Assembly: GCA_963835125.1 (NCBI GenBank)
Contig: CAWIEG010000011.1
Span: forward strand, 16,769-80,768
Origin: an uncultured Acidobacteriaceae bacterium
Lineage (GTDB): Bacteria; Acidobacteriota; Terriglobia; Terriglobales; Acidobacteriaceae
Direction: 5' to 3'
DNA length: 64,000 nucleotides
Below, piece by piece: positions 4,704 to 54,594 of this stretch. The notes under the pieces were generated by a model. The model had not been told where the DNA came from, ran no database searches, and saw only the letters and a program-made list of their open reading frames with translations. How positions within the stretch are numbered: position 1 is the first letter of the stretch; each line of letters opens with the position of its first letter. The position numbers were made by a program, and so were the translations under genes.

Positions 4704-4705
4704 AA

Positions 4706-4978: not shown

Positions 4979-5001
4979 ACATCATTGGAAATGGTTTCGT
5001 T

Positions 5002-7803: not shown

Positions 7804-7913
7804 CCAATCGATCCACGAACGATGTACAGGTTCCCTCAACGATATATGCAATGCAAGGCGGTGGAAAGTCGCTTCGACGGAGCGCCGGAGGATTCCGCGA
7901 ATGAACGAACGCG

Positions 7914-7943
7914 CTTGAACGCGGCGCTGAAGCGCCGCACTAC
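7914..7943. repeat. REP-like element, family 2 (CTTGAACGCGGCGCTGAAGCGCCGC)
   Basis: 30 nt, differing at one position from 12144-12173. Contains the palindrome gcggcgct-gaagcgccgc. Confidence 0.75.
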
Positions 7944-7979
7944 CCGAGCAAGGCACAAGCCAGAAGTTTCGGCACCCTG

Positions 7980-9293: not shown

Positions 9294-9318
9294 AAGGTCC
9301 CCGTTCCTGAGACGCAGA

Positions 9319-9417
9319 GTTGTCGGCCTTGTATTCACCACGGAGGCACCGAGGACACGGAGTGACTGAGACTTGAGAATCCTCCGCGCTCTCCGTGCCT
9401 CCGTGGTGAGCCGACAG
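9319..9417. repeat. REP-like long inverted repeat, family 5 (TCACCACGGAGGCAC...)
   Basis: Left arm tcaccacggaggcaccgaggacacggag (9335-9362). Right arm ctccgcgctctccgtgcctccgtggtga (9382-9409). Flanked by tgtcggc/gccgaca. Confidence 0.7.
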
Positions 9418-9565
9418 GGCCTCGGGAAGGCTGATTGTAGCAACTGGAATCAGGAAACCAGAATGACGTGAATCACATCAAAACGTTCAGCCGGGGGCGG
9501 CGAGAAGGGGCTAATTCGGTGGCCGCAACCTGTGATAACATTCTGCACACGCTCTAAAGGATCCT

Positions 9566-10693: not shown

Positions 10694-11799
10694 ACGATAC
10701 CTTCTTCTGGCTACTTTGGTTTTGATAGTGGGCACGTGGTTGGCGGCCCAGAATTCCACCCCTCCGGCTCAGCAATCCAGCGGTGCGACGACTGCGCCGC
10801 AACAGTCGGGGAGTGCTCCCACGCAGACGGGAGCTCAGGATCAGTCACAGGAACCTCCGGCCCCCAAGGCTCCCAACCAACCCGGCGACACTGTGCAGCT
10901 ACCGACGCCACAGGGCCAAGCACCTGCTGCGCAGCATGATGATGTCTACATCTTCAAGAAGGAAGTGGACGAAGTCACGCTGCATGCCACCGTGGTCGAC
11001 GATCGCAATCGTCTGATAACCAATCTGACCAAGGGCGATTTCAATGTTCTGGAAGACGGCAAGCCGCAGAAGATAACTCTCGTTTCACAACGAAGATATC
11101 CCGGTAGCGTTGGGCATTGTCATCGACAATTCCGGTTCCATGCGGGAAAAGCGTCCGCAGGTCAACGCGGCCGCCATCAACCTGGTCCGCTCCAGCAATC
11201 CGCAGGACAAGGTTTTCGTGGTCAACTTCAACGAAGAATATTTCCTCGACCAGGACTACACGGGCAGCATTCCCAAGCTGAAGGACGCACTCGAGCGGAT
11301 CGAGTCGCGCGGTGGGACGGCGCTATACGACGCAGTTGTAGCCTCTGCCGATCACCTGAAGAAAAGCGGCGAGCTGGAGAAAAAAGTCCTGTTGGTGGTG
11401 ACCGACGGCGAAGATAACGCCAGCCGCGAGTCGCTGGAGCAGGCCCTCCGGCGCTTGCAGGAGCAGAACGGCCCGACGATTTACACCATCGGCTTGCTGA
11501 GCGAAGAGCACGGCAAGCGGGCGCGGCGTGCCCTGCGCGAGATGGCCGAGGACACCGGCGGCGTCGCATTTTTCCCCAAGGACCTGAGTGAGGTGGAGGC
11601 GATCACCCAACAGATCGCACACGACATCCGCAACCAGTACACCATCGGCTACAAGCCCTCGACGCCGCAAAGTGCGGGCGGCTATCGCACGGTGAAGGTG
11701 GAAGCCCAAGCCAAAGGCTACAAGAAACTTCAAGTGCGCACGCGCAGCGGCTACTATGCAGGCCAGCAGCGGGCGTCAGCCCAGGCCGGCGGACAGTAG
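10677..11799 (+). pseudogene. Second VWA domain protein, paralogous to 9566..10693, one frameshift
   Basis: ORF 10677..11417 gives a signal peptide, a Q/P-rich linker and FNVLEDGKPQKITL. After a shift near 11074-11080, ORF 11110..11799 continues with (SFHNEDIPVAL)GIVIDNSGSM...GGTALYDAV...LLVVTDGEDN...IYTIGL...TGGVAFF...IRNQYTIGYKP...RSGYYAG. Confidence 0.8.
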
Positions 11800-11849
11800 C
11801 GGCAGCGAGGATCACCCTTAGCCGCTAAGGCGCATTCGAAGTTTTCCCG

Positions 11850-13709
11850 ATGCAACGACTGGCCGAGCTGTGCGAGCGCATCGCCGGAACCACCAAGAAG
11901 ACCGAGAAGGTCGCGCTTCTGGCCGAGTACTTTCGTTCGCGCGAGTTGCCAGACGCGGCGATTTCCGCGGTCTTTCTTTCCGGACGCGCCTTTCCCGCAT
12001 TCGACGAGCGCACGCTGCAAATCGGCGGATCGCTGTTGTGGAAGCTGGTGGTCGAGCTTGCGGCAGCACAAAACGCAGGCGCCGAATCAGAACAGCAGAT
12101 CCCTCGCCGGTTAAAACCGGCTCGTGATGACAAGAAAAAAGAGCTTGAACGCGGCGCTGAAGCGCCGCTCTACCTGAGTGCGACATCTGCGCTGGACGCG
12201 GCTTATCGCCAGCGCGGCGATCTGGGCGCGGCCGCCTATGATGTCCTCCTGGCGAAAGCGCCGGCCTCGCCGACCATCACCCTGCGGGACGTTCGCGCGA
12301 CGTTCGACCAGATCGCCGAGACCCGCACCGCGACCGCGAAGGCCGCCGTCCTTAAGGCGCTGCTGGAACGCGCGACCGCACTCGAAGCCAAGTACATCCT
12401 GAAGATCATTACCGGCGAGCTGCGCATTGGCCTGAAAGAAAGCCTCGTGGAGGAGGCGATCGCCAAGGCCTACGACGAACCTATCGGCCGCGTGCAGCGC
12501 GCCAACATGCTGCTGGGCGATATCGGCAAGACGTTGCAACTGGCGGCCAAGCACCGTCTGGACGAAGCGCGCATGAGGTTGTTTCATCCCATCGGCTTCA
12601 TGCTGGCGAGTCCCGCGGCAGACGCGGAGGAGGCGTTTCAGTATTTCGAGCACGCGCTGGTGGAGGACAAATACGACGGCATTCGCGCCCAGGCGCACTG
12701 CGGCGGCGGACAGGTGCGGCTGTTCTCGCGAACGCTCGACGAGCTGACGCCGTCCTTTCCGGAGCTGGTAGGGCCGTTGAGCGAGTTTGCCGGCGAGGTG
12801 GTGCTTGACGGCGAGATCGTCGCCTGGCGCGATAACCAGAATGGCGGGCGCGGGGTCCCCGGCGCGCCTGCGGTTAGGCCGATGGGGTGGGGGCACGCGA
12901 TGCCTTTCGGCGAACTCCAGAAGCGCCACGGTCGCAAACAGATCAGCAACCAACTGATCGCCGAAGTGCCGGTCGCCTATGTCGTTTTCGACGTGATTTA
13001 TGCGGGCGGCGAACTCATGCTCGACAGGCCGCTTTCAGACCGCGCTCGGGTCCTGGACCGCGTGTTTGCTGGCGCGAATCGGATCGCGCCTCGTGCCGCG
13101 GTCAACCCGCAAGGCAAGCTGTTCGACTCGCCGATGGACGAAGCCGTGTCGGGATGGGTGTTGCGCGCGCTGTCGCTGCGAGCGGACTCGGCGGAGCAAC
13201 TCGAGCGTTACTTCGAGCAGGCGATGGCTCGCGGCAACGAAGGCCTGATGATCAAGGACCTCGAGTCGCCCTACATGCCGGGACGGCGTGGCCGGTGGTG
13301 GCTGAAGCTGAAGCGCGAACTGGCGACGCTGGACGTCGTGGTCACCGCCGCAGAATTCGGACACGGCAAGCGCATCCACGTGCTTAGCGATTACACCTTC
13401 GCAGTGCGCCAGGGCGAGGAACTGGTCAATATCGGCAAGGCGTATTCAGGCTTGACGGACAAGGAAATTGCCGAGTTGACCGAGTGGTTTCTGGCGCACA
13501 CCACGGCCGATCACGGGCATCTGCGCGAGGTGGAACCGAGAATTGTGCTGGAGGTGGCGTTCAATGCCATCATGCGCTCCGACCGGCACGATAGCGGGTT
13601 TGCCCTGCGATTTCCCCGCATCGTGCGCGTGCGGCAAGACAAGCTGCCGGAAGATATCGACACCGTGGAGGCGGTGGAGCAGATATACAGGCGGCAGCAT
13701 GGAAGATGA
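11850..13709 (+). CDS. ATP-dependent DNA ligase (Lig1/Cdc9-like, with N-terminal DNA-binding domain)
   Basis: EDKYDGIRAQAH (adenylation Lys motif), LDGEIVAW, EGLMIKD, WLKLKRE, and an OB-fold C-terminus ...LRFPRIVRVRQDK. Intact ORF of 619 aa, longer than usual because of internal repeat-derived segments. Confidence 0.9.
   Translation: MQRLAELCERIAGTTKKTEKVALLAEYFRSRELPDAAISAVFLSGRAFPAFDERTLQIGGSLLWKLVVELAAAQNAGAESEQQIPRRLKPARDDKKKELERGAEAPLYLSATSALDAAYRQRGDLGAAAYDVLLAKAPASPTITLRDVRATFDQIAETRTATAKAAVLKALLERATALEAKYILKIITGELRIGLKESLVEEAIAKAYDEPIGRVQRANMLLGDIGKTLQLAAKHRLDEARMRLFHPIGFMLASPAADAEEAFQYFEHALVEDKYDGIRAQAHCGGGQVRLFSRTLDELTPSFPELVGPLSEFAGEVVLDGEIVAWRDNQNGGRGVPGAPAVRPMGWGHAMPFGELQKRHGRKQISNQLIAEVPVAYVVFDVIYAGGELMLDRPLSDRARVLDRVFAGANRIAPRAAVNPQGKLFDSPMDEAVSGWVLRALSLRADSAEQLERYFEQAMARGNEGLMIKDLESPYMPGRRGRWWLKLKRELATLDVVVTAAEFGHGKRIHVLSDYTFAVRQGEELVNIGKAYSGLTDKEIAELTEWFLAHTTADHGHLREVEPRIVLEVAFNAIMRSDRHDSGFALRFPRIVRVRQDKLPEDIDTVEAVEQIYRRQHGR
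12098..12173. repeat. Composite REP insertion inside the ligase ORF (family 1 copy 12098-12133 plus family 2 copy 12144-12173)
   Basis: gatccctcgccggttaaaaccggctcgtgatgacaa followed by cttgaacgcggcgctgaagcgccgctctac. Translated in frame as IPRRLKPARDDKKKELERGAEAPLY. Confidence 0.7.
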
Positions 13710-13811
13710 AGCGGCTGTCAGCCATCAGGTCTAAGATGACCATCTCGAGAAGTCCGCTCGGAAGCCGAAGCCGCAGCCTTCCGAGCAGGACGTCAAAAGG
13801 GCCGAAGCTTT

Positions 13812-13860
13812 AGCTGAAAGCTGACGGCTGAAAGCCGATAGCTGATAGCTGATAGCTCTA
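13812..13860. repeat. Heptad array, AGCTGAN type
   Basis: agctgaa agctgac ggctgaa agccgat agctgat agctgat agctcta, between the ligase stop and the HTH gene stop. Confidence 0.7.
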
Positions 13861-14079
13861 CGCCTCGCTCGATTCGTACTGAAACACTTCTTCCAGCGGC
13901 ACGCCGAAGGCATGAGCGATTCGAAACGCGACATCCAGAGATGGCGAATACTTGTCGCCCTCAATGGCGATGACCGTTTGCCGGGTGACGCCGACCTTCT
14001 CCGCCAGCTCCTGCTGCGTCATCTCCGACGCATTGAAGCGCAGCTTGCGGACATTGTTGGTGATCCGTCCCTTCGCCAT
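13858..14079 (-). CDS. XRE-family helix-turn-helix transcriptional regulator
   Basis: MAKGRITNNVRKLRFNASEMTQQELAEKVGVTRQTVIAIEGDKYSPSLDVAFRIAHAFGVPLEEVF. ATG at 14079 lies 1 nt after the upstream gene's stop. Confidence 0.85.
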   Translation of the reverse strand: MAKGRITNNVRKLRFNASEMTQQELAEKVGVTRQTVIAIEGDKYSPSLDVAFRIAHAFGVPLEEVFQYESSEA

Positions 14080-14080
14080 G

Positions 14081-14533
14081 TCAGAAGCCCTTCCGGTAAT
14101 AGAGCAGCTGAGTGGCAAACTTCATCAGCTCGGCCAGCACCATGAACAGCAGCATGGAGTTCACCAGGAGGAACGGGGTGGCCACGATCCGCGTGGGAGC
14201 GGCATCTCGCACCAGCGACGCCACGACGACATAGCCAATCACCAGCGCGGCCCCGGTCGCCACAACAAAGTAGGCGTTCCGGTATGCCTTGCCCTCGATC
14301 AGGAGATCGCGCTCGTCCTTGGGTTCAGGCTTGGATTCGATGGCCAGAATGATGTGGTACACGATTTCGATCGCGATGATGGCGATCACGGTGAACATCA
14401 GGCGCCCAATGCTGGCGCCGTCAAATGCCGCGTGGTCGACGTGCTGTAAGGCGTTCGCGAAGTAGTATCCGTAGACGATGACCATGGCCAGCAGCGATCC
14501 GAGTATGCTTTTTTCCTGATAGGACAGATCCAT
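14081..14533 (-). CDS. Small integral membrane protein (DUF2178-like), upstream partner of the XRE regulator
   Basis: 150 aa with four hydrophobic segments. Tightly coupled to the HTH gene, an arrangement I recall as common for DUF2178 proteins. Confidence 0.6.
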   Translation of the reverse strand: MDLSYQEKSILGSLLAMVIVYGYYFANALQHVDHAAFDGASIGRLMFTVIAIIAIEIVYHIILAIESKPEPKDERDLLIEGKAYRNAYFVVATGAALVIGYVVVASLVRDAAPTRIVATPFLLVNSMLLFMVLAELMKFATQLLYYRKGF

Positions 14534-14690
14534 GATGACTTTTCTCCTTGGATGTAATGCCTGACGGACAAAATGTAAGTTAATTAGTACTTAATGTCAA
14601 GTTTATTTTACATATACCTGTGGGAAACCTTCGTTCCCCAGAGCTGGCGTAAGATAAGCCTCTGATTTCAGAGAGGATAATCGGCTTACT

Positions 14691-15878
14691 GTGATGCAGA
14701 CGATTGTGGTGAATCAGCGGGGTGCGGCGCGTTTGCGGGGTGGACATCTATGGATATACCGCTCCGACCTGGTGTCGGCAGAGGCCCCGGCTGGCGCGCT
14801 GGTCGAGGTACGGGATGAGCGCGGCAAAGGGCTCGGAACGGCGCTCTATAGCAGCGCGTCGCAGATTGCCATCCGGCTGCTGAGCGCTGAGGACATTACC
14901 GAAGACGCGCTGCCCGGACTTCTACGGGCGCGCATCGCCAGCGCCGTCGAGTTTCGCCGGCAGACCGCGCGCGACACCGATTCCTACCGTGTCATCTTCA
15001 GCGAAGCCGATCTGCTGCCTGGCCTGATCGTCGACAAGTACAACGACGTCGTCGCAATGCAGGCGCTGACGCAGGCGTTTGATCGCGACGATCTGCGCCA
15101 AGTGGTGCTGGAGAAGTTGGCCGAACATTTCCCCGATGCCAGCCTGGTCGAGCGCGTGGACCCGCACATTCGCAAGCTTGAGGAGTTGCCGGCGCGCGAT
15201 TCGCAACTGCAGCGGGGCGACCGGTCGAGCACCGTCTTCACGCTGAACGGCGTGCGTTTTCATTACGACGCGCTCAGCGGGCAGAAGACCGGCGCCTTTC
15301 TCGACCAGCGCGAAAACTACGCGGCCGCGGCGCGGTACGCTCACGGTGAGGCGCTGGATGTCTTCACCTATCAGGGTGGTTTTGCGCTGCATCTGGCGCG
15401 GGTGTGCCAGAGCGTTGCCGCAGTTGATTCTTCGCGCCCGGCGCTCGAAGTCGCCGAGCAGAACGAGCAACTCAATCGCGCCCAACATCGTTGCGGTGAG
15501 ATCGAATGGATTGAAGCCAACGCCTTTGACCTGCTAAAAGACTATGCAACGGCCGGACGGCAGTACGACACCATCGTCCTGGATCCGCCGGCCTTCGCCA
15601 AAACCAAGCGCGCCGTGCCGACGGCGTTGCGCGGCTACAAGGAGCTGAACCTGCGGGCGTTGAAGATGCTTCGTCCTGGAGGCATTCTGGTCACGTGCTC
15701 CTGCTCGTTTCACGTCAGCGAAGCGGAGTTTCTGGAGATGCTAGGGACTGCGGCGGCCGACGTAGGCCGCCGAATCCGCGTACTGGAAAAGCGTGGGGCG
15801 TCGCGCGACCATCCCGTCCTGCTGAATGTTCCGGAAACGGCTTACCTGAAGTGCGTAATCTGCCAGGCGGAACCCTAA
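14691..15878 (+). CDS. Class I SAM-dependent rRNA methyltransferase (RlmI/YccW-like, PUA-like N-terminus)
   Basis: GHLWIYRSDL...YRVIFSEADLLPGLIVDKY...QKTGAFLDQREN...VLDVFTYQGGFAL...DPPAFAK...GYKELN...GGILVTCSCS. Confidence 0.85.
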   Translation: MMQTIVVNQRGAARLRGGHLWIYRSDLVSAEAPAGALVEVRDERGKGLGTALYSSASQIAIRLLSAEDITEDALPGLLRARIASAVEFRRQTARDTDSYRVIFSEADLLPGLIVDKYNDVVAMQALTQAFDRDDLRQVVLEKLAEHFPDASLVERVDPHIRKLEELPARDSQLQRGDRSSTVFTLNGVRFHYDALSGQKTGAFLDQRENYAAAARYAHGEALDVFTYQGGFALHLARVCQSVAAVDSSRPALEVAEQNEQLNRAQHRCGEIEWIEANAFDLLKDYATAGRQYDTIVLDPPAFAKTKRAVPTALRGYKELNLRALKMLRPGGILVTCSCSFHVSEAEFLEMLGTAAADVGRRIRVLEKRGASRDHPVLLNVPETAYLKCVICQAEP

Positions 15879-15916
15879 ACCGCCCACGCCTGTCGGACAG
15901 CCGTCGCGAGCGGCCT

Positions 15917-15948
15917 AAAAACACAAAACCCAGCCGCTTTCGGCTGGG
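15917..15948 (-). terminator. Hairpin with a U-tract on the minus strand (possible bidirectional terminator)
   Basis: cccagccg-ctttc-ggctggg at 15929-15948, preceded on the plus strand by aaaaacacaaaa. That run gives a U-rich tail only for a leftward transcript. Confidence 0.4.
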
Positions 15949-16329
15949 GCAGCTGAGGATCTCTCAACTTCAGTTCTAATCTCATTGTATCACGCTGGAG
16001 GGGGATTTGTTCCGCGTTTGTCGAACTTATATCTGCCGCAGAATCATGGGATTGCGGCTTATTGTTGCGTTTCTAAGTATTGACATATAAGAGTTACCTG
16101 CCTGCCTTGTAGAGTAAATGTAAATTCCTATTAAGTCATTTTATATAAGTAACATACTAACTATTACAAAGTAGGATAGTCCAGTCCGTCAATAACTTTA
16201 CAATAGTTTACTCATATTTCATGATTCTATTACGCTGATATGAGCGTCTAATTACCAGCGAGCAGGAACGTACAGACCCACGTGCCTTGCGAACCGCAAA
16301 CTAGTTATTGAGTGGAGGAGAAACGAATC

Positions 16330-16836
16330 ATGACTGTTTTGACCCGCTGGGCTCCTTACCGTGAACTGAGTGCTTTGCAGAATCGTATGAGCCGGCTGTT
16401 CGACGAGCAGTACGCTGGTCGCGAGGAATCGCTGACCGCTGGGGCGTTCGTGCCCGCAGTCGATATCTACGAGGACGAGCACAGCATCCAGTTGAAGTTG
16501 GAAGTGCCCGGCATCGACGAAAAAGACCTTGACATCAAGGTCGAGAACAACACCCTGACTGTCAGCGGCGAGCGCAAACTCGAAGTGGAAGAGAAGGAAG
16601 AGAACTTCCACCGCGTGGAGCGCCGTTACGGCAGCTTTACTCGCTCGTTTACCTTGCCGAGCACGGTCTCGACCGACGACATCCAGGCTGACTACGATCA
16701 CGGCGTGCTGAAGATCCGCTTGGCGAAGCGGGCCGAAGCCAAGCCGAAGCAGATCAAGGTCACCGTCGGCGGCCAGAAGACTGTCGAAGGCAAGAAAGTT
16801 GAAGGTCAGGCGCAGAGCAAGACGCAGGCCGCCTGA
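16330..16836 (+). CDS. Hsp20/alpha-crystallin family small heat-shock protein
   Basis: PAVDIYEDEHSIQLKLEVPGIDEKDLDIKVENNTLTVSGERK...ERRYGSFTRSFTLP...ADYDHGVLKIRL. ATG at 16330 with GGAGGAG upstream. Confidence 0.9.
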   Translation: MTVLTRWAPYRELSALQNRMSRLFDEQYAGREESLTAGAFVPAVDIYEDEHSIQLKLEVPGIDEKDLDIKVENNTLTVSGERKLEVEEKEENFHRVERRYGSFTRSFTLPSTVSTDDIQADYDHGVLKIRLAKRAEAKPKQIKVTVGGQKTVEGKKVEGQAQSKTQAA

Positions 16837-16895
16837 CGCAAGTTTCGCCCCTCGGGGAGAGTTTTTCTGGAGGGAGACGAACTGGGGAGTTCAAG

Positions 16896-16930
16896 GGGAG
16901 GCGGGTGTAAATCCACCTCCCTTTTGTTTA
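16896..16930 (+). terminator. Putative intrinsic terminator of hsp20
   Basis: gggaggcgg...ccacctccc stem with one mismatch, followed by ttttgttt. Confidence 0.45.
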
Positions 16931-16971
16931 CCAAAGGGAACTCTCCGGGGGGCGAGAGCTAGAAGACATTC

Positions 16972-17027
16972 GTCAGTGGCCAGTTGTCAGCTGTCGGCCG
17001 TCAGCCGCCAGTGCTCAGCCGTCGGCA
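16972..17027. repeat. Heptad array, GTCAGCN type (8 units)
   Basis: gtcagtg gccagtt gtcagct gtcggcc gtcagcc gccagtg ctcagcc gtcggca. Confidence 0.7.
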
Positions 17028-17191
17028 AACCTGGCGAGCGGGCGACTTAATTTTGGGACGCGCGGGCGTTTAGAAACATTCGCAAAGTGCGAAATCTGTC
17101 GCATTCGGCCGGAACGAACTAGCGCCTTTGGATTTTTTTCTCCGGAACGGGATGCTTGTTTTCGGCTGGAGCTGCGCATGGCAAGGGTCAA

Positions 17192-17283
17192 GCGCCGGCT
17201 GGCGCGGCGTTAGCTTGGCCCAGGACGAAGCGTAGCGCAGTCCTGGGCAGGCGGAAAAAGACTCCGAGTCCCGCTAGGGACGG
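17192..17283. repeat. Tripartite REP-like element, family 3
   Basis: gcgccggctggcgcggcg, then gcccaggac...gtcctgggc hairpin, then ccgagtcccgctagggacgg. The same three-part layout occurs at 28128-28218. Confidence 0.7.
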
Positions 17284-17425
17284 CGGAAGTCAGCAGTCGA
17301 TCGTGGCCAGTGGAATCTTCCTGGCCGAAGAGGGAGGCACAGGGACCAGCCTCGATTCGTGGTTTTTTTGCGAGCCGCAACGTGCTCCCGCGAATCAAAA
17401 CCACTGGCCACGATCCGCTGAAAAG

Positions 17426-17612
17426 CAGTTGTCAGTTGCCGGTTGTCAGTTGTCAGTTTCTTCCGACGACTGGTGAGCGGCAATTGCCGCGTTTAGCATG
17501 ACTGTAGGGACCGTCTGCGCAAGGTTAACTTGAGCGGAGTTGGGGCTGCGATTTCCGTTGGCAGCGCCAGCCCTTTACCGACAACTGACAACTGATAACT
17601 GACAACTGAGGT
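17426..17612. repeat. Inverted pair of CAGTTGT heptad arrays flanking about 115 nt, directly upstream of clpB
   Basis: Arm 17426-17460: cagttgt cagttgc cggttgt cagttgt cagtttc. Arm 17578-17612: ccgacaa ctgacaa ctgataa ctgacaa ctgaggt. The last unit contains the clpB GAGG Shine-Dalgarno. Confidence 0.75.
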
Positions 17613-17617
17613 ACGAC

Positions 17618-20260
17618 ATGGCAATCCGTTGGGACAAATTAACCGTTAAAGCGCAGGAGGCGATGCAGCGGGCGAACGATCTCGCCAGCGAGCATGGCAA
17701 TCCTGAAGTGCAGCCAGTACACATTCTGGCGGCGCTGGTCGAAGACCACGAAGGCATCGTCGCGCCTTTGCTGGAGCGCGTGGGCCTTCATGCCAACGCG
17801 GTGCAGTCCGACGCGATGCGCGAGATCGAGAAGCTGCCGAAAGTTTCGGGCAGTGGCGCCACTCAGGCGCATCTCTCCGATGCCGCTTCCAAGATGCTGG
17901 AAAACGCCTTCAAAGAGGCTTCCAACTTTAAGGATGAATACGTCTCCACCGAGCACTTGCTGCTCGCGATGGCCAAGCTGAAGCGCGATCCGGCGCAGGA
18001 AATCCTGGCGCGCGGCGGCGCAAGTTACGACAACATTCTGCGGGCGCTAACCACGGTGCGTGGCAATCAGAAGGTCACCGACCAGAATCCCGAAGCCAAG
18101 TACCAGTCGCTGGAGCGCTATGCGAAAGATCTGACCGAGCTAGCGCGTCAGGGAAAGCTCGATCCCGTCATCGGTCGCGACGAGGAAGTGCGCCGCGTGG
18201 TGCAGGTGCTGTCGCGCCGCACCAAGAACAATCCGGTACTGATTGGCGAGCCCGGCGTTGGCAAGACCGCCATCGTGGAAGGATTGGCGCAGCGCATCAT
18301 CTCCGGCGACGTTCCTGAGCAGCTAAAGAACAAGCGCGTGGTCTCGCTCGATCTGGGAGCGATGTTGGCGGGCGCGAAGTATCGCGGCGAGTTCGAAGAC
18401 CGCCTCAAAGCCGTCTTGAAAGAAATCGAGCAATCGCAGGGGCAAATCATTCTCTTCATCGACGAGCTTCACACGTTGGTAGGAGCAGGCGCGGCCGAAG
18501 GCGCGATCGATGCCTCGAACATGCTGAAGCCGGCCCTGGCCCGCGGCGAACTGCGCGCCATCGGGGCAACCACGCTCAATGAATATCGCAAATACATCGA
18601 GAAAGATGCTGCGCTGGAGCGCCGCTTCCAGCCTGTGTTGGTGGGTGAGCCGACGGTGGAAGACACCATCGCCATCCTGCGCGGTCTGCGCGAAAAATAC
18701 GAAGTCCACCACGGTGTGCGCATCAAGGATTCGGCCATCGTGGCGGCGGCAACGCTGTCGCACCGCTACATCACGGACCGCTTCCTGCCCGACAAGGCCA
18801 TCGACCTGATCGACGAAGCCGCAGCCTCGCTTCGTATTCAGATCGACTCCATGCCGACGGAGATCGACCAGCTCGAGCGGCGCGCCACGCAACTGGAAAT
18901 CGAGCGCCAGGCGCTGAAGCGCGAAGACGATGCCAACTCGCGCGAGCGGCTGGCGATCGTCGAGAAAGAACTGGCGCAGATCAAAGAAAAAGCCAACGCA
19001 CTCAAAGCTCGCTGGAAGCAGGAAAAGGAAGCCATCGCGAAAGTGCGCGAGCTGAAGGAGCGCATCGAACGCCTGAAGACGGAAGAGGTGGAAGTCACGC
19101 GCAAAGGCGACTTCGAGCGCGCGGGCAGGATCAAGTATGGCGAGATACCGCAACTTGAGGCCGAGGTCGCAAAGCTCAGCGCGGCGATGGACACCAAACA
19201 GTCGCGCATGTTGAAGGAAGAAGTTGACGAGGAAGACGTCGCCAAGATCGTCAGCAAGTGGACCGGCATTCCCGTGTCGAAGATGCTGGAAGGCGAAGTG
19301 AAGAAGTTGGTCACCATGGAAGACCGGCTGAAGGAGCGCGTCGTTGGACAGGACGAAGCGATCCAGAGCGTGGCCAATGCCATCCGTCGGTCGCGCGCTG
19401 GACTCAGCGATCCGCGACGGCCGATTGGCTCGTTCATCTTCCTGGGTCCAACTGGCGTTGGCAAGACGGAACTGGCGCGCGCGCTGGCGGAATTTCTCTT
19501 CGACGACGAACATGCCATGATCCGCATCGACATGTCTGAATACATGGAGAAACACGCGGTGTCGCGGCTGATCGGCGCGCCTCCGGGGTACGTGGGCTAC
19601 GAAGAGGGCGGGCAGTTGACGGAAGCGGTGCGGCGCCGGCCGTACTCGGTCATCTTGTTCGACGAGATCGAGAAGGCGCATCCTGACGTCTTCAACGTCT
19701 TTCTACAAATCATGGACGATGGCCGCCTGACCGATGGCAAGGGCCGGGTGGTCGATTTCAAGAACACCATCATCATCATGACCTCGAACATCGGCTCGGT
19801 CTATCTGCAAGACCTGGGAATGCATCACGATGCCGAGCAGGTGGCCGAGGCGCACAAGCAGGTGATGGAAGCGCTGCGGGCGCACTTCAAGCCCGAGTTC
19901 CTTAACCGCGTGGATGACATCGTTATCTTCAATCCCTTGGGCAAGGAGCAGTTAACGAAGATCGTCGATCTGCGGCTGGAGGATTTGCGCAAGCTGCTGG
20001 CCGAGCGCAAGATCTCGCTGGACCTGACGCCGGCGGCGAAGGAGTTGGTCTTTACCGAAGGCTACGATCCAAACTATGGCGCGCGTCCGCTGAAACGGGC
20101 GATCCAACGCGTGGTCCAGGACCCGCTGGCCATGAAGATCCTTGATGGCGAAGTGTTGCTCGGCGATCACGTCACGGTCGACGTGGACAAGAAGCAGCAC
20201 AAGCTGACGTTCAAGGTGGCCAAGCGCGTCGGGGTGGCGGCCGCAACGGTAAAGAAATAA
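17618..20260 (+). CDS. clpB: ATP-dependent chaperone ClpB
   Basis: 880 aa. Clp_N, two AAA+ modules ([15 protein letters not shown]; [15 protein letters not shown]), a coiled-coil middle domain, and [12 protein letters not shown]. Confidence 0.97.
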
Positions 20261-31707: not shown

Positions 31708-33258
31708 TCACCTATCCTTCACTGCTTCCAAAAATGCCGCTCCATACTTGTCCAGCTTTGCCGGGCCAATGCCTTTAATCTCCGACAGCGCGACCATATT
31801 GGCGGGCGCAGCGCGAGCGATAGCCTGAAGCACGGAGTCATGAGCGACGCAAAACGCCGGCACGTCCTGCGCCTCGGCCAACTTCAATCGTAGCTTCTTC
31901 AGGCGCTCAAAGCGGCCGAGGCCAGTGTGGTCCAGCTCGGGAGATTTCATGCCCTGCGCCTTGCGGTTGCCGGAACGCCGCCGCGAGGTGACGGCATCCG
32001 CCTGAGGTGGTTTACTCATGCGGACCTGGCCACGACAAACGTCACAGACACATCGGGTAACAGCGGTGCTGTCGCCAAAATAGTCGAGAATGGCGCGGCG
32101 GCGGCAGCGCGACCGGTACGCATAGTTGAATACCTGATCAAGTTTCCGGCGAGCGTGAGCTTGCAGCGTTTCCACTTGCGCCTCCGAAAGCGCAGTGTTG
32201 TTCTCGCCAATCTTGTCGATGAAGAATTCCTGGGTAAAGCGGTCACGGGGGCTGCAATACAAAATGCATTGCGCCGGTTTGCCGTCACGTCCGGCCCGGC
32301 CCGCTTCCTGGTAGTACGCTTCCAGGCTGGCGGGAATGTTGTAATGGACCACAAAGCGGATGTCGGCTTTGTTGATTCCCATTCCAAAAGCGTTGGTTGC
32401 CACCACCACCGCTCCGGCGTTCGACATGAAGTCTTCCTGGCTTTTCTTGCGCTGCTCCGTGTCCATCCCGGCGTGATAAGCGCGAATCGTGCGTTGCGGA
32501 AAGCTGGCTTGAAATCGCGAGGCCAACTGCTCCACCACTCGACGGGTTGCGCAGTACACAATGCCGCTGCCCGCCTGCTTGGTCAGCCCATGCAGCAAGG
32601 CTTCGTCTTTCTCGAACTCCATGTCCATGCGCCGGCACGCATACGTGAGATTTGGCCGATCGAAACCGGTGACGTGCAGCCTGGGGCTGCGCAGCTTAAG
32701 CATTTTTACGATGTCATCCCGCACGTTCGGAGTTGCCGTCGCAGTCAAGGCCATCGTGACCGGCGATCCCAGTCGCTCCCGCACCTCGGCCAGACGCATA
32801 TATTCAGGCCGGAAATCGTGTCCCCAGAAGCTTAGACAGTGGGCCTCATCCACTACAAAAAGTCGTGTCTTTAGCTCCGGGACTATCCGCTGGAACGACG
32901 CCGCGGAGAATCGTTCCGGCGCGACGTAGAGCAGTCCCGCAAACCCTTGCTTGAGCTCGGCGAAGACCTCGCGCTGCTCCTGATGGCTCTGCGAACTGTT
33001 CATAAACAACACAGGAACATTCAGCCGTTGCAGCTGTTTCACCTGATCCGCCATCAGCGAAATTAGCGGAGAGACGACGACAGTCAGGCCTTGCAACATC
33101 AGGGCAGGAAGCTGGAAGCATAGGCTCTTGCCCGCGCCGGTGGGCATGACGCATACCACGTCGTTTCCTGCCACGATATCCTGAATAACCTCCCGCTGAT
33201 ACGGGCGAAACTCCGAGAGTTGGAAGACCTGTTGCAGAAGATCGTCAATGCTATTCAT
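31708..33258 (-). CDS. recQ: ATP-dependent DNA helicase RecQ
   Basis: FRPYQREVI...VCVMPTGAGKSLCFQLP...DEAHCLSFWGHDFRPEY...MALTATA...GIVYC...AFGMGINK...HYNIPASLEAYYQEAGRAGRDG, followed by RQC-type Zn-binding Cys residues and an HRDC-like C-terminus. ATG at 33258. Confidence 0.93.
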   Translation of the reverse strand: MNSIDDLLQQVFQLSEFRPYQREVIQDIVAGNDVVCVMPTGAGKSLCFQLPALMLQGLTVVVSPLISLMADQVKQLQRLNVPVLFMNSSQSHQEQREVFAELKQGFAGLLYVAPERFSAASFQRIVPELKTRLFVVDEAHCLSFWGHDFRPEYMRLAEVRERLGSPVTMALTATATPNVRDDIVKMLKLRSPRLHVTGFDRPNLTYACRRMDMEFEKDEALLHGLTKQAGSGIVYCATRRVVEQLASRFQASFPQRTIRAYHAGMDTEQRKKSQEDFMSNAGAVVVATNAFGMGINKADIRFVVHYNIPASLEAYYQEAGRAGRDGKPAQCILYCSPRDRFTQEFFIDKIGENNTALSEAQVETLQAHARRKLDQVFNYAYRSRCRRRAILDYFGDSTAVTRCVCDVCRGQVRMSKPPQADAVTSRRRSGNRKAQGMKSPELDHTGLGRFERLKKLRLKLAEAQDVPAFCVAHDSVLQAIARAAPANMVALSEIKGIGPAKLDKYGAAFLEAVKDR

Positions 33259-33420
33259 GAGATTGGCGTCGAGATCTACTGTACCGCGGATGCGCCCGAG
33301 GTGGCAGTGACAAACCGGCTCAAGCGTTGACGCGATTCCAGCCGAGCCTCGCACCATTGCTGACCCTTTCAGTCTTGGTCAGTCCCGCAATGCTGATAAA
33401 CTGGATCGTCAATTTTTCTT

Positions 33421-49824: not shown

Positions 49825-51261
49825 ATGACAGCTCTCGAACTCTCCACCCAGGATTTCCGCCGTTTAGCTGCCGACATCGTCAACCTCTGCGCGGAATATT
49901 TGTCCACCTTAGACCAACGTTCCACGTTTCCCCAGACAACCGGTGCAGATAGCCAGCGCCTCTTCGACCTCGACCTGCCGGAGCGCGGCATGGGCGATCA
50001 GGCCTTTGCCGCGCTTACGGATGTTATCGGGAACTCGCGTGTTCAAAACGGCCGCTTTTTCGGATACGTCCATGGATCGGGAGAGCCAATTGCCGCGCTC
50101 GGCGATCTCCTGGCTTCAGTTCTGAACCAGAACATCACGGCCTGGCGTTCTTCGCCGGCAGGTGTAACCATCGAGCGCACTGTGGTTCGCTGGTTGTCAG
50201 AAGCAGTCGGCTGCCGTGGTTTCGTCGGGACGCTGACCAGTGGAGGCTCCGCTGCCAACCTTATGGGTCTGGCTATGGCACGCGAGAGGAAAACTCCGGC
50301 CAACGAACGAGGTCTTTACAATGCGAGGACGGGCATAATCTACGCCTCAGAGCAAGTACACATGGCCGTGCCCAAAGCCGTGGCCATGCTCGGAATTGGG
50401 CGTGAAAATCTGCATTACATCCCATGCGACGATTCTTACCGCATGGTGCCGTCGCTACTGGAGCGAGCGATCCGCCAGGACGAAGCGCAAGGGCGGGCGC
50501 CAATTGCAGTGGTTGCATCGGCGGGAACCGTAAACACCGGCTCTATCGACCCGCTGCGAGAAATCGCAGCTATTGCCCGCTCCCATGATCTCTGGATGCA
50601 CGTAGATGGCGCCTACGGGGCCCTGGCTGCGATGGCTGCGCCTGAAAAATTCGATGGTCTGGCTCTGGCCGATTCACTTTCCCTCGATCCCCATAAATGG
50701 CTGTACCAACCCCTCGATTGCGGGTGCCTGCTTTATCGAGATGCCGCGTCGGCGCAGAGTACCTTCACTTATACCGGCAACTATGCCAAACAACTTAGTT
50801 CCGATCCAGTTGAGGGCTTTGCATTTTTCGAGGAGTCTATCGAGCTTTCGCGCCGCTTCCGCGCCTTGAAACTATGGCTCTCGCTACGCTACCACGGGCT
50901 GGCCGCCTTCCGCGCCGCCATCCAGCAGGACCTCGATCATGCTCAACACCTGGCGGCGGCAATCAAAGATTCTGCTCTGCTTGAGCTTCTTGGTCCGGTT
51001 GAGCTAAGCGCAGTTTGCTTCCGCCACGTGCTGGACAAGGACGCCTCCGAAGACATGCGCAATCGCTTCAATCTGGCCTTGTTGAAACGCATTGTTGCGC
51101 GCGGGAAGGTGTATCTCTCGAACGCAGAATTGAAGGGCAAGTTCTGTCTTCGTGCCTGCATTGTGAATCACCGTACACGGGAAGGAGATATCTCTGCGGT
51201 GGTTCGCGAGGTTCTAGAGGTTGCGCATGACGTAATCTCAGAGGTCGGCAATATGGTCTAG
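49825..51261 (+). CDS. PLP-dependent group II decarboxylase (aromatic-L-amino-acid/glutamate decarboxylase family)
   Basis: TSGGSAANL...HVDGAYGA...SLSLDPHKWLYQPLDCG (PLP-Lys motif). Confidence 0.85.
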   Translation: MTALELSTQDFRRLAADIVNLCAEYLSTLDQRSTFPQTTGADSQRLFDLDLPERGMGDQAFAALTDVIGNSRVQNGRFFGYVHGSGEPIAALGDLLASVLNQNITAWRSSPAGVTIERTVVRWLSEAVGCRGFVGTLTSGGSAANLMGLAMARERKTPANERGLYNARTGIIYASEQVHMAVPKAVAMLGIGRENLHYIPCDDSYRMVPSLLERAIRQDEAQGRAPIAVVASAGTVNTGSIDPLREIAAIARSHDLWMHVDGAYGALAAMAAPEKFDGLALADSLSLDPHKWLYQPLDCGCLLYRDAASAQSTFTYTGNYAKQLSSDPVEGFAFFEESIELSRRFRALKLWLSLRYHGLAAFRAAIQQDLDHAQHLAAAIKDSALLELLGPVELSAVCFRHVLDKDASEDMRNRFNLALLKRIVARGKVYLSNAELKGKFCLRACIVNHRTREGDISAVVREVLEVAHDVISEVGNMV

Positions 51262-51441
51262 CGGTCAGATGGCGATTCGTTACTGCCGCCACTATTGCTG
51301 GTGCGAAAAGGGGACTCGCCCATTAAGATCAAGGAGAGCTAAAGGTGAGACCATCATCCCAGTCGTCAGCAGTTGGGCGATCGACCGTGTAGAGGTCACG
51401 CGGTCGCGGCTCCGATTCGACCAGAAAGGGCCTTCTGCAAT

Positions 51442-52371
51442 ATGAAGTACGACGTCTTCATCTCCTTCAAAGACTCTGGCAAGGATGGTTTGCCAACACC
51501 GGATTCCACGCACGCGCGCGCCGTTTACGAAGCGCTCATGGCAATCGGGTTGAAGGTGTTCTTCAGTGAAGAGTCGCTCGCCGAGGCGGGACAGGGCAAT
51601 TTCTCCAGGAGCATCGAGACTGCGCTCGAATCGGCCCGCATTTTAATTCTCGTGGCCTCCTGCCGCGAACACATCGAGTCGCGCTGGGTCGAAGCTGAGT
51701 GGGATTCCTTCCTGGAGGACCTGCGCAGCGGCAACAAGCAGGGCGAACTGTTCATTCTCAGCTGCGGCAAACTGAGCCCAGCCGACCTGCCTCTCTTTCT
51801 CCGCCGTCAGCAAATGTTTCCTGCGGATGGCCTCGACAAATTGCTCAAGTTTGTTGTCAATGCCATGCCGCGGCGTAGCTCGCTCCGTGATTTCATACGG
51901 GGATCACTGCACTGTTTCCACCCCGAGAAGGACGAAGACAAAGTCTATCTGCTGACCGTTCACCCAGGCAGCAATGCAGATACCTACCACGTCACGGCCT
52001 ATTGGGGTGCGCGAACCGCGAAGAGGCTGAACAGCCAGATGAAAGTCCGCGATGTCCCGGCAGGGCGGGCCCAGTTGGAGGTGGAGAGGGATAAGAAGGA
52101 AAAGCTCCGCAACGGCTACGTCGAAAAACCCTTTGCCAGGATCCTGACACCCGAAGCCCGGTCGCTCATGTCGGCATCGCTGGGCTTGTACGAGGCTCCA
52201 GGAAAGGCCGGCCCGGCGCGTGCAGCCGGCTCGAAGGCGGGCCGATCCAGCAAGTCGCAGCAGGCTGCCGAAGAGACGGCCGGAACAGCGGCAAAGCGCA
52301 AGGTGGAATCGCGCGTGTCTGGGGCGGCCGCCAGAGGAAAGACAGTCAGGGCGGCGCGCAAGCAACAGTAG
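51442..52371 (+). CDS. TIR-domain protein fused to a WGR domain and a Lys/Arg/Ala-rich tail
   Basis: N-terminus MKYDVFISFKDSGKD...KVFFSEESL...ILILVASCREHIESRWVEAEWDSFL is a TIR fold with the conserved Glu region. Residues about 155-235, KVYLLTVHPGSNADTYHVTAYWGARTAKRLNSQMKVRDVPAGRAQLEVERDKKEKLRNGYVE, fit the WGR pattern (KFY..., WGRIG, eK..kGY). The C-terminal 70 aa are basic and low-complexity. Confidence 0.75.
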   Translation: MKYDVFISFKDSGKDGLPTPDSTHARAVYEALMAIGLKVFFSEESLAEAGQGNFSRSIETALESARILILVASCREHIESRWVEAEWDSFLEDLRSGNKQGELFILSCGKLSPADLPLFLRRQQMFPADGLDKLLKFVVNAMPRRSSLRDFIRGSLHCFHPEKDEDKVYLLTVHPGSNADTYHVTAYWGARTAKRLNSQMKVRDVPAGRAQLEVERDKKEKLRNGYVEKPFARILTPEARSLMSASLGLYEAPGKAGPARAAGSKAGRSSKSQQAAEETAGTAAKRKVESRVSGAAARGKTVRAARKQQ

Positions 52372-52579
52372 GGTCAAGGACTGGCGCGGCGGATCGGACG
52401 ACCACTCCGTTTCCAGCCCTCACTGCGGCCGGCGGCCTGGATCAGTCCATCAGCTAAGAGACGCCTTCGAAGCTCATATCCACGCCAAGCTCTGGCTGAG
52501 GTGGTGGACCTTATCTGAGTTCACCGGTCCCAAGTGCGAGCGCTAACGAAGCCGTCGAGAACCAACGCTCCGACTGCCA

Positions 52580-53791
52580 CTAACTCAGGAACGGCCCGAA
52601 GTGCGATGTCTGCACTGCGCCCCCGGCGGCCTTGCCGATCTTAAATAAGGTCGTCATATTTTCCACGGCATCCATCTTCTGGATGTTGCTCGGCTGCACG
52701 TCCGGGAATCCCAAATTGCGGAGACCCGTGTCGCTGAGATCGGCGTTATAACGCGCGTACAAAAAACGACGTCCCAAGTCTGTTGAAAGTGGAATGGTTG
52801 GAGCCTGGTATTGCTCGGCCGTGGTCATCCCTTCGTGCACCTGTCGCGGCACCAGATCGAGGATTTCGCTGTCGAGCGGAGCGCCATACGTGCAGCGTCC
52901 CACGGTACGGCAGTTGATGTCCTGGTCGATCAACATTCCGTACATGAGTTCACCCGGAAGCCCTGCGACGGTGGACACCATGTTTTGGTTCGGCGCGGCA
53001 GCCGTAGCTCCTTTCGACTCGGCAGCTCCCGTGCCCACGGATATTAGCAGCAGGTTGTTCTCCCCGGTCTTCCAGTTCAACCGGTATGCGGGCTCGGTGG
53101 CCATGCGGTACAGCAGGAATGCTGGATCGTTGTAGGGAGTCACGCCCCCATCGGCAAAAACGAATGTCTCCGAAGCGTCGTTCGGGTTCCACTGCAGAAT
53201 TTCGGGAGGGAAATACACCGGGGCGGCAGTGCTGGCCCGAACCAACTGCCAGAGTGGAATCTTCAGGTTGTTGTTGTCTGTAGTCGGATCATTGTATTTG
53301 GCGTCCGGGTTACTGCTGATCGGCCACGGGGAGTCCGTCGTAACGTTCTTGGTGACCACCAGAAGCAGGCACTTCAGCCCTTGGTCTGCGGTACTCTGCG
53401 GCGCCGCCAAGGTTGTGTTCTCGCCAAACACATCCCTCAGTTTTGCCCGCAGCGGATCCGCGGTGTAGAGACACTTGAGTCTTTGCAGCAGCCTTGACGG
53501 CTCAAACATTTCTTCTCCGGCGGAGTTATAGAAGTCGACCAGTTCTGCCGTGGTTTTCCCGAGCGACAGGCCTGCGGCGATGATCGCCCCCGTACTGGTC
53601 CCGGCGATGTAGTCGAAATACTCGTGGAGCTTCTGGCCTGTCTTTTGGTGTATCAATTCCTCGATCTGGCTCAATATGCCGAGCGTGATCAGACCGCGTA
53701 TCCCACCTCCGTCAAGCGCCAGCATTCGGTGAGGTCTATCTTCTTCATAACGGCTACGCAGCGATTTCCATTCGATGGGACGCAGGAGCAT
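52580..53791 (-). CDS. Patatin-like phospholipase
   Basis: LALDGGGIRGLITLG (oxyanion hole), YIAGTSTGAIIA (GxSxG nucleophile), FADGGVTPYNDP (catalytic Asp). Full-length patatin architecture of 403 aa. Confidence 0.88.
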   Translation of the reverse strand: MLLRPIEWKSLRSRYEEDRPHRMLALDGGGIRGLITLGILSQIEELIHQKTGQKLHEYFDYIAGTSTGAIIAAGLSLGKTTAELVDFYNSAGEEMFEPSRLLQRLKCLYTADPLRAKLRDVFGENTTLAAPQSTADQGLKCLLLVVTKNVTTDSPWPISSNPDAKYNDPTTDNNNLKIPLWQLVRASTAAPVYFPPEILQWNPNDASETFVFADGGVTPYNDPAFLLYRMATEPAYRLNWKTGENNLLLISVGTGAAESKGATAAAPNQNMVSTVAGLPGELMYGMLIDQDINCRTVGRCTYGAPLDSEILDLVPRQVHEGMTTAEQYQAPTIPLSTDLGRRFLYARYNADLSDTGLRNLGFPDVQPSNIQKMDAVENMTTLFKIGKAAGGAVQTSHFGPFLS

Positions 53792-54018: not shown

Positions 54019-54594
54019 GTGACTAGCAAAGCGTCAGTCTTAGAAGCCCGCGGGAAATCCGCTGGACGCACCGTCATCATCGAAGCCGGACGGCGTGTCG
54101 ACGCACCGGACGCGCAGAGTCCACGCTTTCGGCCGTCCAAAGTCTCCGAGGTAAGCCGCCGCATAAGGGAATTGCTACATAAGCAGAATCCGTTGGCGGT
54201 CGTTTGTTCCGCTGCTTGCGGCGCCGATCTCCTCCTGCTGCAAGCTGCTGGGGAAATGCACATCGAGCAGGTCGTGCTCTTGCCCTCGGAACCGGAAGCC
54301 TTTCGAAAGTCCTCCGTGACGGATCATCCAGGAAACTGGGGCGAACTCTATGACCAGGTATTGAAAACGGCACGAGTGGAGATCCTGGGACTTCCTGAAG
54401 GTCAGGAGGGGTACCTGGAAACCAATCGCAAGCTACTCGATCGCGGTCAGCAACTGGCGCGCGAGAACAGCGTGCCTGCCGAAGCCCTGGTGATATGGAA
54501 CGGAATCTCGCGCGGCCCCGACGACGTTACGGCTCACTTCCTGCATGAGGCCAAGTCACGCAAGATGACGGTGCTGGAAATCTCCACTGTGTGA
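54019..54594 (+). CDS. Uncharacterised alpha/beta protein, possibly SLOG-superfamily (YpsA/MoCo-carrier/LOG-like)
   Basis: 191 aa: RTVIIEAGRRVDAPDAQSPRFRP...LAVVCSAACGADLLLLQAAGEMHIEQVVLLP...FRKSSV...WGELYDQVL. The Gly-rich loop plus helix after a beta-strand recalls SLOG nucleotide-binding motifs. Assignment is from memory only. GTG start. Confidence 0.4.
   Translation: MTSKASVLEARGKSAGRTVIIEAGRRVDAPDAQSPRFRPSKVSEVSRRIRELLHKQNPLAVVCSAACGADLLLLQAAGEMHIEQVVLLPSEPEAFRKSSVTDHPGNWGELYDQVLKTARVEILGLPEGQEGYLETNRKLLDRGQQLARENSVPAEALVIWNGISRGPDDVTAHFLHEAKSRKMTVLEISTV

Follow-up and report, generated by a model that had tools for sequence, protein, structure and literature searches.

Enzymes of the TIR family play a central part in the immunity of bacteria, plants and animals, and the question to be asked for each of them is what switches it on. 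They become active through oligomerisation, which in the SPARTA system (short pAgo / TIR-APAZ) is induced by target DNA (PMC10899771). The pairing of a TIR protein with a SLATT protein constitutes type VII Thoeris, which works with a signal of the cyclic ADP-ribose (cADPR) type and the effector ThsH (bioRxiv 10.64898/2025.12.03.692087). The WGR domain is known from PARP1, PARP2 and PARP3, where it contacts DNA breaks, as in the PDB entries among the structural matches reported below; in bacteria, the WGR proteins DR2173 of Deinococcus radiodurans and MolR of Escherichia coli have been reported in DNA-damage regulons (PMC8533742). Here we describe a gene that joins these two kinds of module. 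It is located in a stretch of 64,000 nucleotides from an uncultured Acidobacteriaceae bacterium (positions 16,769 to 80,768 of contig CAWIEG010000011.1, assembly GCA_963835125.1), the whole of which is called the window hereafter. The encoded protein is a member of the TIR superfamily that has, behind its TIR domain, a divergent WGR domain and a basic tail; as a predicted sensor-coupled TIR NADase it is of a kind already known. The most likely reading is that of a self-contained protein of the cytoplasm, by which an enzyme cleaving nicotinamide adenine dinucleotide (NAD) is coupled to DNA. Its parts, in window coordinates, are the following.

51442-52371, + strand: TIR-WGR-basic-tail gene, 309 amino acids (aa) plus stop (open reading frame and translation, homologues, substitution ratios, public gene calls)
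51442-51864, + strand: TIR domain, residues 1-141 (Pfam TIR_2, secondary structure of the AlphaFold2 model, Foldseek)
51697-51699, + strand: codon of Glu86, the predicted catalytic glutamate, in the motif W82-V-E-A-E86-W (translation, family alignment, BLASTP to SARM1)
51895-52125, + strand: divergent WGR domain, residues 152-228, with four long strands, a helix and a short strand (Pfam, profile, model, alignment)
52003-52014, + strand: W188-G189-A190-R191, the family version of the W-G-R motif (translation; in alignments it falls on WGRR/FGRIG in canonical WGR domains and on WGRVG in PARP2 and PARP3)
52126-52188, + strand: helical extension after the WGR domain, residues 229-249, LTxEARSxLSASLGL, conserved across the family (model helices at 231-234 and 237-246)
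52189-52368, + strand: disordered basic tail, residues 250-309 (model confidence, charge, substitution ratios)

The open reading frame (ORF) starts with the ATG at 51442, ends with the TAG at 52369-52371 and has 309 codons, the N-terminus of its product being MKYDVFISFK. The same 309-aa product is found in the public gene calls for near-identical contigs, and a preliminary description of this DNA had given the gene exactly these limits. A longer ORF from a TTG at 51373, present in a mechanical list of ORFs, was rejected as the gene start because the homologues all begin with MxYDVFISFK and because the upstream sequence shows indels of 1-2 nucleotides (nt) in orthologous loci. The ratio of non-synonymous to synonymous substitution rates (dN/dS), based on four orthologous loci with three distinct gene sequences, is 0.17-0.28 for the gene overall. 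The TIR domain has a ratio of 0.11-0.31, the WGR domain in the middle one of 0.12-0.19 and the tail one of 0.38-0.51. This ORF is a real, functional gene, under purifying selection in all three of its parts.

The TIR domain covers residues 1-141, in good agreement with the stretch of about 135 residues first assigned to it. Pfam TIR_2 (PF13676) matches residues 5-109 with an expectation value (E) of 1.1e-10 and 42.5 bits against a cut-off of 28, and it is found in 25 of 25 aligned homologues. An AlphaFold2 model, built from 54 family sequences, has a mean predicted local distance difference test score (pLDDT) of 81.7; it is confident for residues 1-250, with most blocks above 90 and a value of about 90 across the TIR domain, and is disordered from residue 253. 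When compared with the PDB using Foldseek, the model retrieves the TIR domains of SARM1, AbTir, TIR-STING and SPARTA with a probability of 1.0 and E 3e-5 to 6e-4, the best matches being the NADase TIRs of SARM1, AbTir and SPARTA. Within the 54 sequences V83, E86 and W87 are invariant and W82 and E84 nearly so, and BLASTP places the WVEAE of the window protein on the WVHKE of the SARM1 TIR. The last glutamate of WVHKE is the catalytic E642 of SARM1, in the alpha-C helix. As far as can be read from its sequence, the TIR domain has what a catalytic TIR needs, including an intact predicted catalytic glutamate, E86. Its isoelectric point (pI) is acidic, at 5.1. A wider clade of TIR domains, 35-48% identical and coming from Firmicutes, Planctomycetes and others, carries the same motifs, that of the catalytic glutamate included, on proteins with very diverse C-terminal modules: a transmembrane segment with repeats, SEL1 repeats, a methyltransferase, a second TIR or LRR. 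Such a combination of a constant enzyme with variable sensors, as these sequences suggest it, is the usual pattern of modular immune proteins.

The identity of the middle domain is settled by evidence at the level of the family, drawn from sequences and models: it is a divergent WGR domain. The preliminary description had read a WGR at about residues 155-235, which is the right segment, and had named a Pfam search and a structure model as checks. The Pfam search gave a mixed answer, since the window copy itself stays below the cut-off of the WGR model (PF05406), with a match over residues 161-230 and profile positions 10-76 of 79, whereas 21 of 26 excised orthologous middle domains match at E <= 0.01, the best of them at 1.1e-6. 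Among full-length homologues 13 of 25 match this Pfam model, and precomputed WGR matches exist for two of the homologues (P0078 and P0112), in which the middle domain is the only candidate WGR region. A profile of the middle domain, run against 1.84 billion representative proteins, found 24 family representatives at E < 1e-10 and, beyond these, about 70 weaker matches, mostly proteins of about 80-250 aa. Ten of the weaker matches were checked; Pfam WGR recognises every one of the ten at E <= 0.01, with six scores above the cut-off. These small WGR proteins and the TIR-WGR family have a signature in common, LHC...DKVY...WG(R)R...SQxK...GY. The structure model agreed: modelled alone, the domain reaches a pLDDT of 91.8 and has a WGR fold, its top 27 PDB matches all being WGR domains of PARP1 or PARP2 (probability 0.77-1.0, template modelling score about 0.5, weak E of 0.04-0.5). 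In a joint alignment it can also be matched over its whole length to canonical bacterial WGR domains, the pairs window/canonical being DKVY/AKFW, WGAR/FGRIG, SQxK/GQxQxK and EKLRNGY/EKLKNGY. A bridging profile matches the Bacteroides fragilis structure 2ra8 (2.4e-10), PARP3 (3e-6), PARP2 (7e-4) and PARP1 (0.013); as this profile already contains canonical WGR sequences, the matches serve to map residues and are no independent proof of homology. Sequence searches of the PDB with the protein alone or the middle-domain profile alone gave no matches, and hhalign, used to compare the middle domain with five canonical WGR domains, aligned only the C-terminal half, weakly, with a probability of 64%. 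The residues W188, G189, R191, K221, G225 and Y226 are invariant in the family, and the domain is basic (pI 9.4).

The tail is predicted with a pLDDT below 50, has a net charge of +10 and a pI of 11.4, and consists to 53% of alanine, proline, lysine or arginine. The tail carries a net positive charge in all of 120 homologues (median +20) and is 15 to 288 residues long in them. The tail sequences are not alignable with each other, and what is conserved is the positive charge and the richness in these four residues. It had been called histone-like, which is borne out as to composition and not as to homology: residues 250-309 have no Pfam match and show no homology to H1 or HU-type domains.

In a search of 5.8 billion clusters, 204 homologues of the window protein were found, with 53-92% identity, and all 120 that are listed align through both the TIR and the middle domain. 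The association of TIR and WGR is therefore not a chance juxtaposition, as is also indicated by the region-wise dN/dS. Some members have grown further: a canonical second WGR domain follows the tail in P0028, P0048 and P0054, and a LigA-type BRCT domain does so in, for example, P0074, P0093, P0103 and P0111. The family is rare, with about 11 loci encoding a TIR plus WGR protein among 185,579 species-representative genomes; these belong to Acidobacteriaceae, Terriglobales, Bryobacterales, Burkholderiales, Verrucomicrobia, Gemmatimonadetes and Nisaea. No relatives were found in plasmid, phage and IMG/VR collections. PADLOC and NCBIfam returned only generic TIR similarity (PDC-S66, retron-TIR, ThcB4), two NCBIfam models being far below their cut-offs. 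The combination of the two domains is present in databases in the form of precomputed TIR_2 plus WGR matches and of protein names: NCBI knows the members only as TIR proteins, and JGI labels several of them 'predicted DNA-binding WGR domain protein'. The first reading of the sequence knew of no characterisation of this architecture, and our search of the accessible literature found no paper on a TIR-WGR protein either.

How does this protein compare with the systems introduced above? The idea of a PARP-like sensor logic placed on another NAD consumer, put forward in the preliminary description, holds in part. As in PARP1, PARP2 and PARP3, a WGR fold is present on one polypeptide with a predicted NAD+-consuming enzyme, the window family retains the W and G of the motif as well as the C-terminal KxxGY, and the BRCT domains of PARP1 have a parallel in those carried by some TIR-WGR family members. 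However, the window protein lacks the ADP-ribosyltransferase (ART/PARP) catalytic domain, the helical regulatory domain and the zinc fingers; it has no PARP or PARP_reg match in Pfam, and no such fold is found among the structural matches. Moreover, WGR is C-terminal to the enzyme here and N-terminal in PARP, and the arginine of the motif is shifted by one residue. Since it is devoid of ART and helical regulatory domains, the window protein is not a PARP, and the resemblance is one of logic and of the shared WGR fold. Its activation likely differs from that of PARP1 in detail, because TIR domains are normally activated by oligomerisation and not by relief, through unfolding, of an inhibitory helical domain (PMC10899771).

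The TIR domain has SPARTA and SARM1 among its best structural matches, and its conserved catalytic glutamate is shared by them. In SPARTA the recognition of nucleic acid drives TIR assembly and NAD+ loss (PMC10899771), and the same is proposed here for TIR-WGR. In contrast to these systems, the window protein has no Argonaute, APAZ, ARM or SAM part, and its sensor would be the WGR domain and the tail, within 309 aa and with no guide. MolR, DR2173, the B. fragilis protein 2ra8 and the small WGR proteins of about 125 aa have the WGR domain in common with it, the small ones sharing the family signature as well; none of the bacterial WGR proteins inspected bears a TIR or another NAD-consuming enzyme.

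The genomic contexts of the relatives can be grouped in three classes. Class I comes from Burkholderiales and freshwater metagenomes, with TIR-WGR proteins that share 59-68% identity with the window copy. In 24 class I loci, a membrane protein of about 584 aa with a SLATT match is encoded immediately upstream of TIR-WGR, usually preceded by a second SLATT protein of about 599 aa; the NCBIfam matches (SLATT_1 2.5e-8, SLATT_4 4.6e-7, SLATT_3 9e-5) are all below the curated cut-offs. Next downstream, in most loci with enough flank, a DNA ligase of the NAD-dependent type is encoded, which bears BRCT and WGR domains (58 bits for WGR) and is usually accompanied by MoxR and DUF2201 genes; this LigA-BRCT-WGR gene adjoins TIR-WGR in 15 loci. 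Further class I genes encode an Ank-DUF4132 protein, a WGR-LRV protein, a MoxR AAA+ ATPase and a DUF2201 metallopeptidase/VWA protein, and a gene resembling ATP-dependent ligases lies upstream in several of the longer loci. One class I locus is from a cultured isolate, Limnohabitans sp. 2KL-1 (L017, at about 182-203 kb of NZ_NESL01000002.1). This locus holds, at its positions 2098-18806, a large conserved operon that is also seen in L016, L018, L104, L105, L110 and L124, the gene order being two small uncharacterised proteins, the ATP-ligase-like protein, two SLATT proteins, TIR-WGR, LigA-BRCT-WGR(-BRCT) and Ank-DUF4132. The L018 operon additionally encodes a WGR-LRV/HEAT protein, MoxR and the DUF2201 metallopeptidase/VWA protein. 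In the second SLATT protein, a putative N-terminal LOG/SLOG-like motif (AEGADRL...GPGGTAEVI) was noticed by eye. We found no description of the class I operon, which, with its two SLATT genes, TIR-WGR, LigA-BRCT-WGR, DUF4132, MoxR and DUF2201, may represent a new conflict or DNA-damage system. Class II is of the Verrucomicrobia type, with proteins about 55% identical to that of the window and flanked by MoxR, DUF2201 and large unannotated proteins. In a verrucomicrobial locus (L020), a DUF4062-AAA protein is encoded at 13467-15821, two genes downstream of TIR-WGR. DUF4062 has recently been proposed as an NADase domain, named 'NIR' (bioRxiv 10.64898/2026.09.04.749371), and this locus may hold two NAD-consuming enzymes. 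Class III consists of the Acidobacteriota, including the window, in which the TIR-WGR gene is alone.

As regards type VII Thoeris, the likeness thus lies in the SLATT genes upstream of TIR-WGR in class I loci. The differences are that SLATT genes are missing from the 64 kb around the window copy, that the operons of the relatives are much larger, with ligases, DUF4132, MoxR and DUF2201, that their TIR bears a putative DNA-sensing module not reported for ThsB-type proteins, and that their SLATT matches do not reach the NCBIfam cut-offs. A Thoeris-type adjacent effector (SIR2-SLOG, Macro or SLATT) is absent at the window copy and present only in relatives 59-68% identical to it. Because the defining partner genes are absent here, the window gene is not a canonical Thoeris, SPARTA or cyclic oligonucleotide-based antiphage signalling system (CBASS) gene.

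We tentatively favour, as close to an even chance though short of it, that the protein is a TIR NADase residing on DNA, whose trigger would be ends or nicks in the DNA or its own clustering there. The basic WGR domain and the still more basic tail would hold the protein on DNA. Ends, nicks or an abnormal density of accessible DNA, whether damaged or invading, would gather several copies, and their acidic TIR domains could then form the oligomer needed for activity and cleave NAD+. For the solo acidobacterial form, NAD+ depletion would, as for SPARTA or SARM1, stop growth or bring about abortive infection; this is the most likely output in the window genome because no effector gene is linked. 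In the class I relatives, TIR-WGR probably makes a signal of the cADPR type for the two SLATT proteins, as in type VII Thoeris, and the WGR-bearing NAD-dependent ligase would seal the triggering nicks. The link to DNA breaks is strengthened by the BRCT or second WGR domain fused to some members, by the LigA-BRCT-WGR and ATP-ligase-like neighbours and by the occurrence of WGR proteins in DNA-damage regulons.

Several points weigh against this reading. DNA binding, the ligand, the NADase activity, its product and the switching of TIR by WGR are all things that we infer. The supporting context comes from relatives 55-68% identical and not from the window copy, and homologues of the class I and class II partner genes (SLATT, ligase, MoxR and others) are absent from the 64-kb window, where the surroundings are ordinary chromosomal genes of unremarkable GC content and not a defence island. 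The Pfam WGR score of the window protein itself is 11.9 bits (E 0.25), below the cut-off of 22. The position of the motif arginine is occupied by Ala190 here and by A, P, S or G across the family, the invariant R191 coming next to it. Finally, bacterial WGR domains have also been read as plain DNA-binding domains of MolR-like transcription factors (PMC7824862).

A bolder version, which we hold to be rather doubtful, would make the protein a bacterial functional analogue of PARP1 built on another enzyme. Here the WGR would read nicks or ends and switch on a TIR acting as NAD+ hydrolase or cyclase, and damaged DNA or DNA from an invader would in this way lead directly to the loss of NAD+ or to an alarm of the cADPR type. 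In Burkholderiales such as Limnohabitans sp. 2KL-1, the operon form would then be an undescribed nick-sensing suicide or immunity system, in which TIR-WGR arms two SLATT pores in the membrane, a WGR-guided NAD-dependent ligase holds the system off by competing for the same nicks and the same NAD+, and MoxR and DUF2201 add control. Sensor-TIR fusions are common, and it is the parallel with PARP, together with the undescribed class I operon, that is the notable part. If WGR is indeed the switch, the solution found in PARP, where a WGR that senses breaks governs an NAD+ consumer, would have arisen independently on an unrelated catalytic fold. A single protein of 309 aa would then offer a model for DNA-triggered TIR activation, and widespread bacterial WGR proteins such as MolR and DR2173 would gain a first functional foothold.

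The alternative that survives best, although we judge it unlikely, is that the window protein is an orphaned signal generator, i.e. the TIR component of a multi-gene system, of the sort seen in Burkholderiales and Verrucomicrobia, making a cADPR-type messenger, with the receptors or effectors encoded elsewhere in the genome or lost; depletion of NAD+ would then not be its purpose. The SLATT gene directly upstream in 24 loci, the MoxR and DUF2201 partners found in two phyla and the TIR-SLATT pairing of type VII Thoeris are in its favour. Set against it is the behaviour of the acidobacterial gene. Two other loci, L013 and L015, encode products 90-92% identical to that of the window (rate of synonymous substitution, dS, about 0.18) and share with the 64-kb window only the segment 51324-52541/52557. 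Judging from these alignments, the TIR-WGR gene moves as a cassette of about 1.23 kb made up of a leader, the coding sequence and a 3' flank, the non-coding parts being as follows.

51324-51441, + strand: conserved non-coding 5' leader or promoter region, 116 nt, 93% identical to L013 and L015 despite different upstream genes
52372-52545, + strand: conserved 3' flank and right end of the cassette, about 175 nt, 89-92% identical to L013 and L015

In Acidobacteriota this cassette occurs without partners in at least three different contexts, no partner homologue is found in 64 kb, and the solo copies are under purifying selection, which means that they work alone or with unlinked genes. The leader is taken to be non-coding because of the indels of 1-2 nt seen in orthologous loci; it has no Rfam match, and its predicted fold is no more stable than that of shuffled sequence. 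The 3' flank has no Rfam match, no unusual fold and no ORF conserved in frame. It marks the right end of the cassette, as a locus without TIR-WGR (L096) matches the window from 52555 on, over a patatin gene and a 191-aa ORF, with 88% identity. Both flanks (89-93% identical) are conserved somewhat better than synonymous sites (proportion of synonymous differences, pS, 0.16-0.18). They were considered as a riboswitch, a small RNA or an integron attC site, and these candidates were rejected: there is no Rfam match, the folding energies are within those of shuffles, and there are neither terminal repeats nor an ORF conserved in frame. An origin from a mobile element was likewise rejected in view of the lack of relatives in plasmid, phage and IMG/VR collections and of any compositional anomaly; no mobility gene, repeats or conserved small ORFs were recognisable in the cassette.

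A second alternative, of clearly lower probability, is that the substrate of the TIR is nucleic acid: as reported for plant TIRs bound to double-stranded DNA (dsDNA), it would be a nuclease or 2',3'-cNMP synthetase, and the WGR domain and tail would bring it to this substrate. The TIR-dsDNA complex of flax L7 (7x5l, 7vu8) is indeed among the Foldseek matches, and two predicted DNA-binding modules are joined to one TIR. The best structural matches are nevertheless the NADase TIRs, the SLATT proteins adjacent in relatives fit a signal derived from ADP-ribose (ADPR), and the sequence gives no specific indication of nuclease activity. Slightly less probable again is a non-enzymatic role as DNA-bound adaptor or regulator, either a nucleoid-associated protein or a MolR-like transcription factor, with the TIR as a module for protein-protein interaction. 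This would suit the view of bacterial WGR proteins as MolR-like transcription factors (PMC7824862) and the composition of the tail, which resembles that of nucleoid-protein tails. It accords badly with the invariance of Glu86 and of the surrounding WVxxEW motif in 54 sequences, with their retention in the wider TIR clade and with the low dN/dS of the TIR domain.

Plant TIRs can transfer ADPR to ATP or ADPR, and PARP2 and PARP3 ADP-ribosylate DNA ends. The least probable alternative of all, by a small margin, is an ADP-ribosyl transferase that moves ADP-ribose from NAD+ onto DNA termini or protein in a PARP-like marking of breaks and sets no free products loose; by analogy only, its enzyme would be placed there by the WGR. 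Against it, we know of no precedent for a TIR modifying DNA, and no Macro or ARH gene, for the removal of ADP-ribose, was seen among those neighbours of the relatives that were scanned against Pfam.

Apart from the DNA-bound TIR NADase favoured here, the window contains ordinary chromosomal genes, among them RapZ, a pyridoxal phosphate (PLP)-dependent decarboxylase, ClpB, RecQ, PheST and, 40 kb away, an ATP-dependent DNA ligase. The ligase (11850-13709, + strand) has Lig1-like N, M and C domains. This ligase, RecQ (31708-33357, - strand) and ClpB (17618-20260, + strand) are neither adjacent to TIR-WGR nor homologous to the operon partners of the relatives. The PLP-dependent decarboxylase (49825-51261, + strand) adjoins TIR-WGR and is absent in L013 and L015. 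A decarboxylase of the same cluster lies about 3 kb from TIR-WGR on the opposite strand in loci of the Bryobacterales type (L001, 1470-2867, - strand; L014, 5470-6867, - strand). This proximity is probably residual synteny rather than a functional link.

On the other side of TIR-WGR, and convergent with it, a patatin-like phospholipase is encoded at 52580-53791 (- strand), which in other genomes shows no linkage to TIR-WGR. It resembles the cGAMP-activated lipase of CBASS, with a PADLOC effector match at E 4.5e-43 and 118.7 bits for NCBIfam CBASS_lipase, below the cut-off of 200, and no cyclase was seen among the neighbours of this gene. It forms a divergent pair, here and in L096, with the 191-aa ORF (54019-54594, + strand). 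We considered TIR-WGR, the patatin gene and the 191-aa ORF as a three-gene island of TIR, effector and sensor; this was rejected because the pair recurs in L096 without TIR-WGR and because L013 and L015, which hold the closest TIR-WGR orthologues, are devoid of both genes. A BLASTP comparison of the 191-aa protein with the SLOG-like N-terminus of the operon SLATT protein was not significant. The 191-aa protein belongs to a conserved family of 343 proteins without Pfam match, recognised by the motifs GRRVDAPDA, AACGADLL, PEGQEGYL and WNxxSRGPDDVTxHF. In many of its homologues the N-terminus is longer by about 16 residues and carries a twin-arginine-like NRRxF signal, which the window copy does not have; owing to this signal, these homologues are probably exported.

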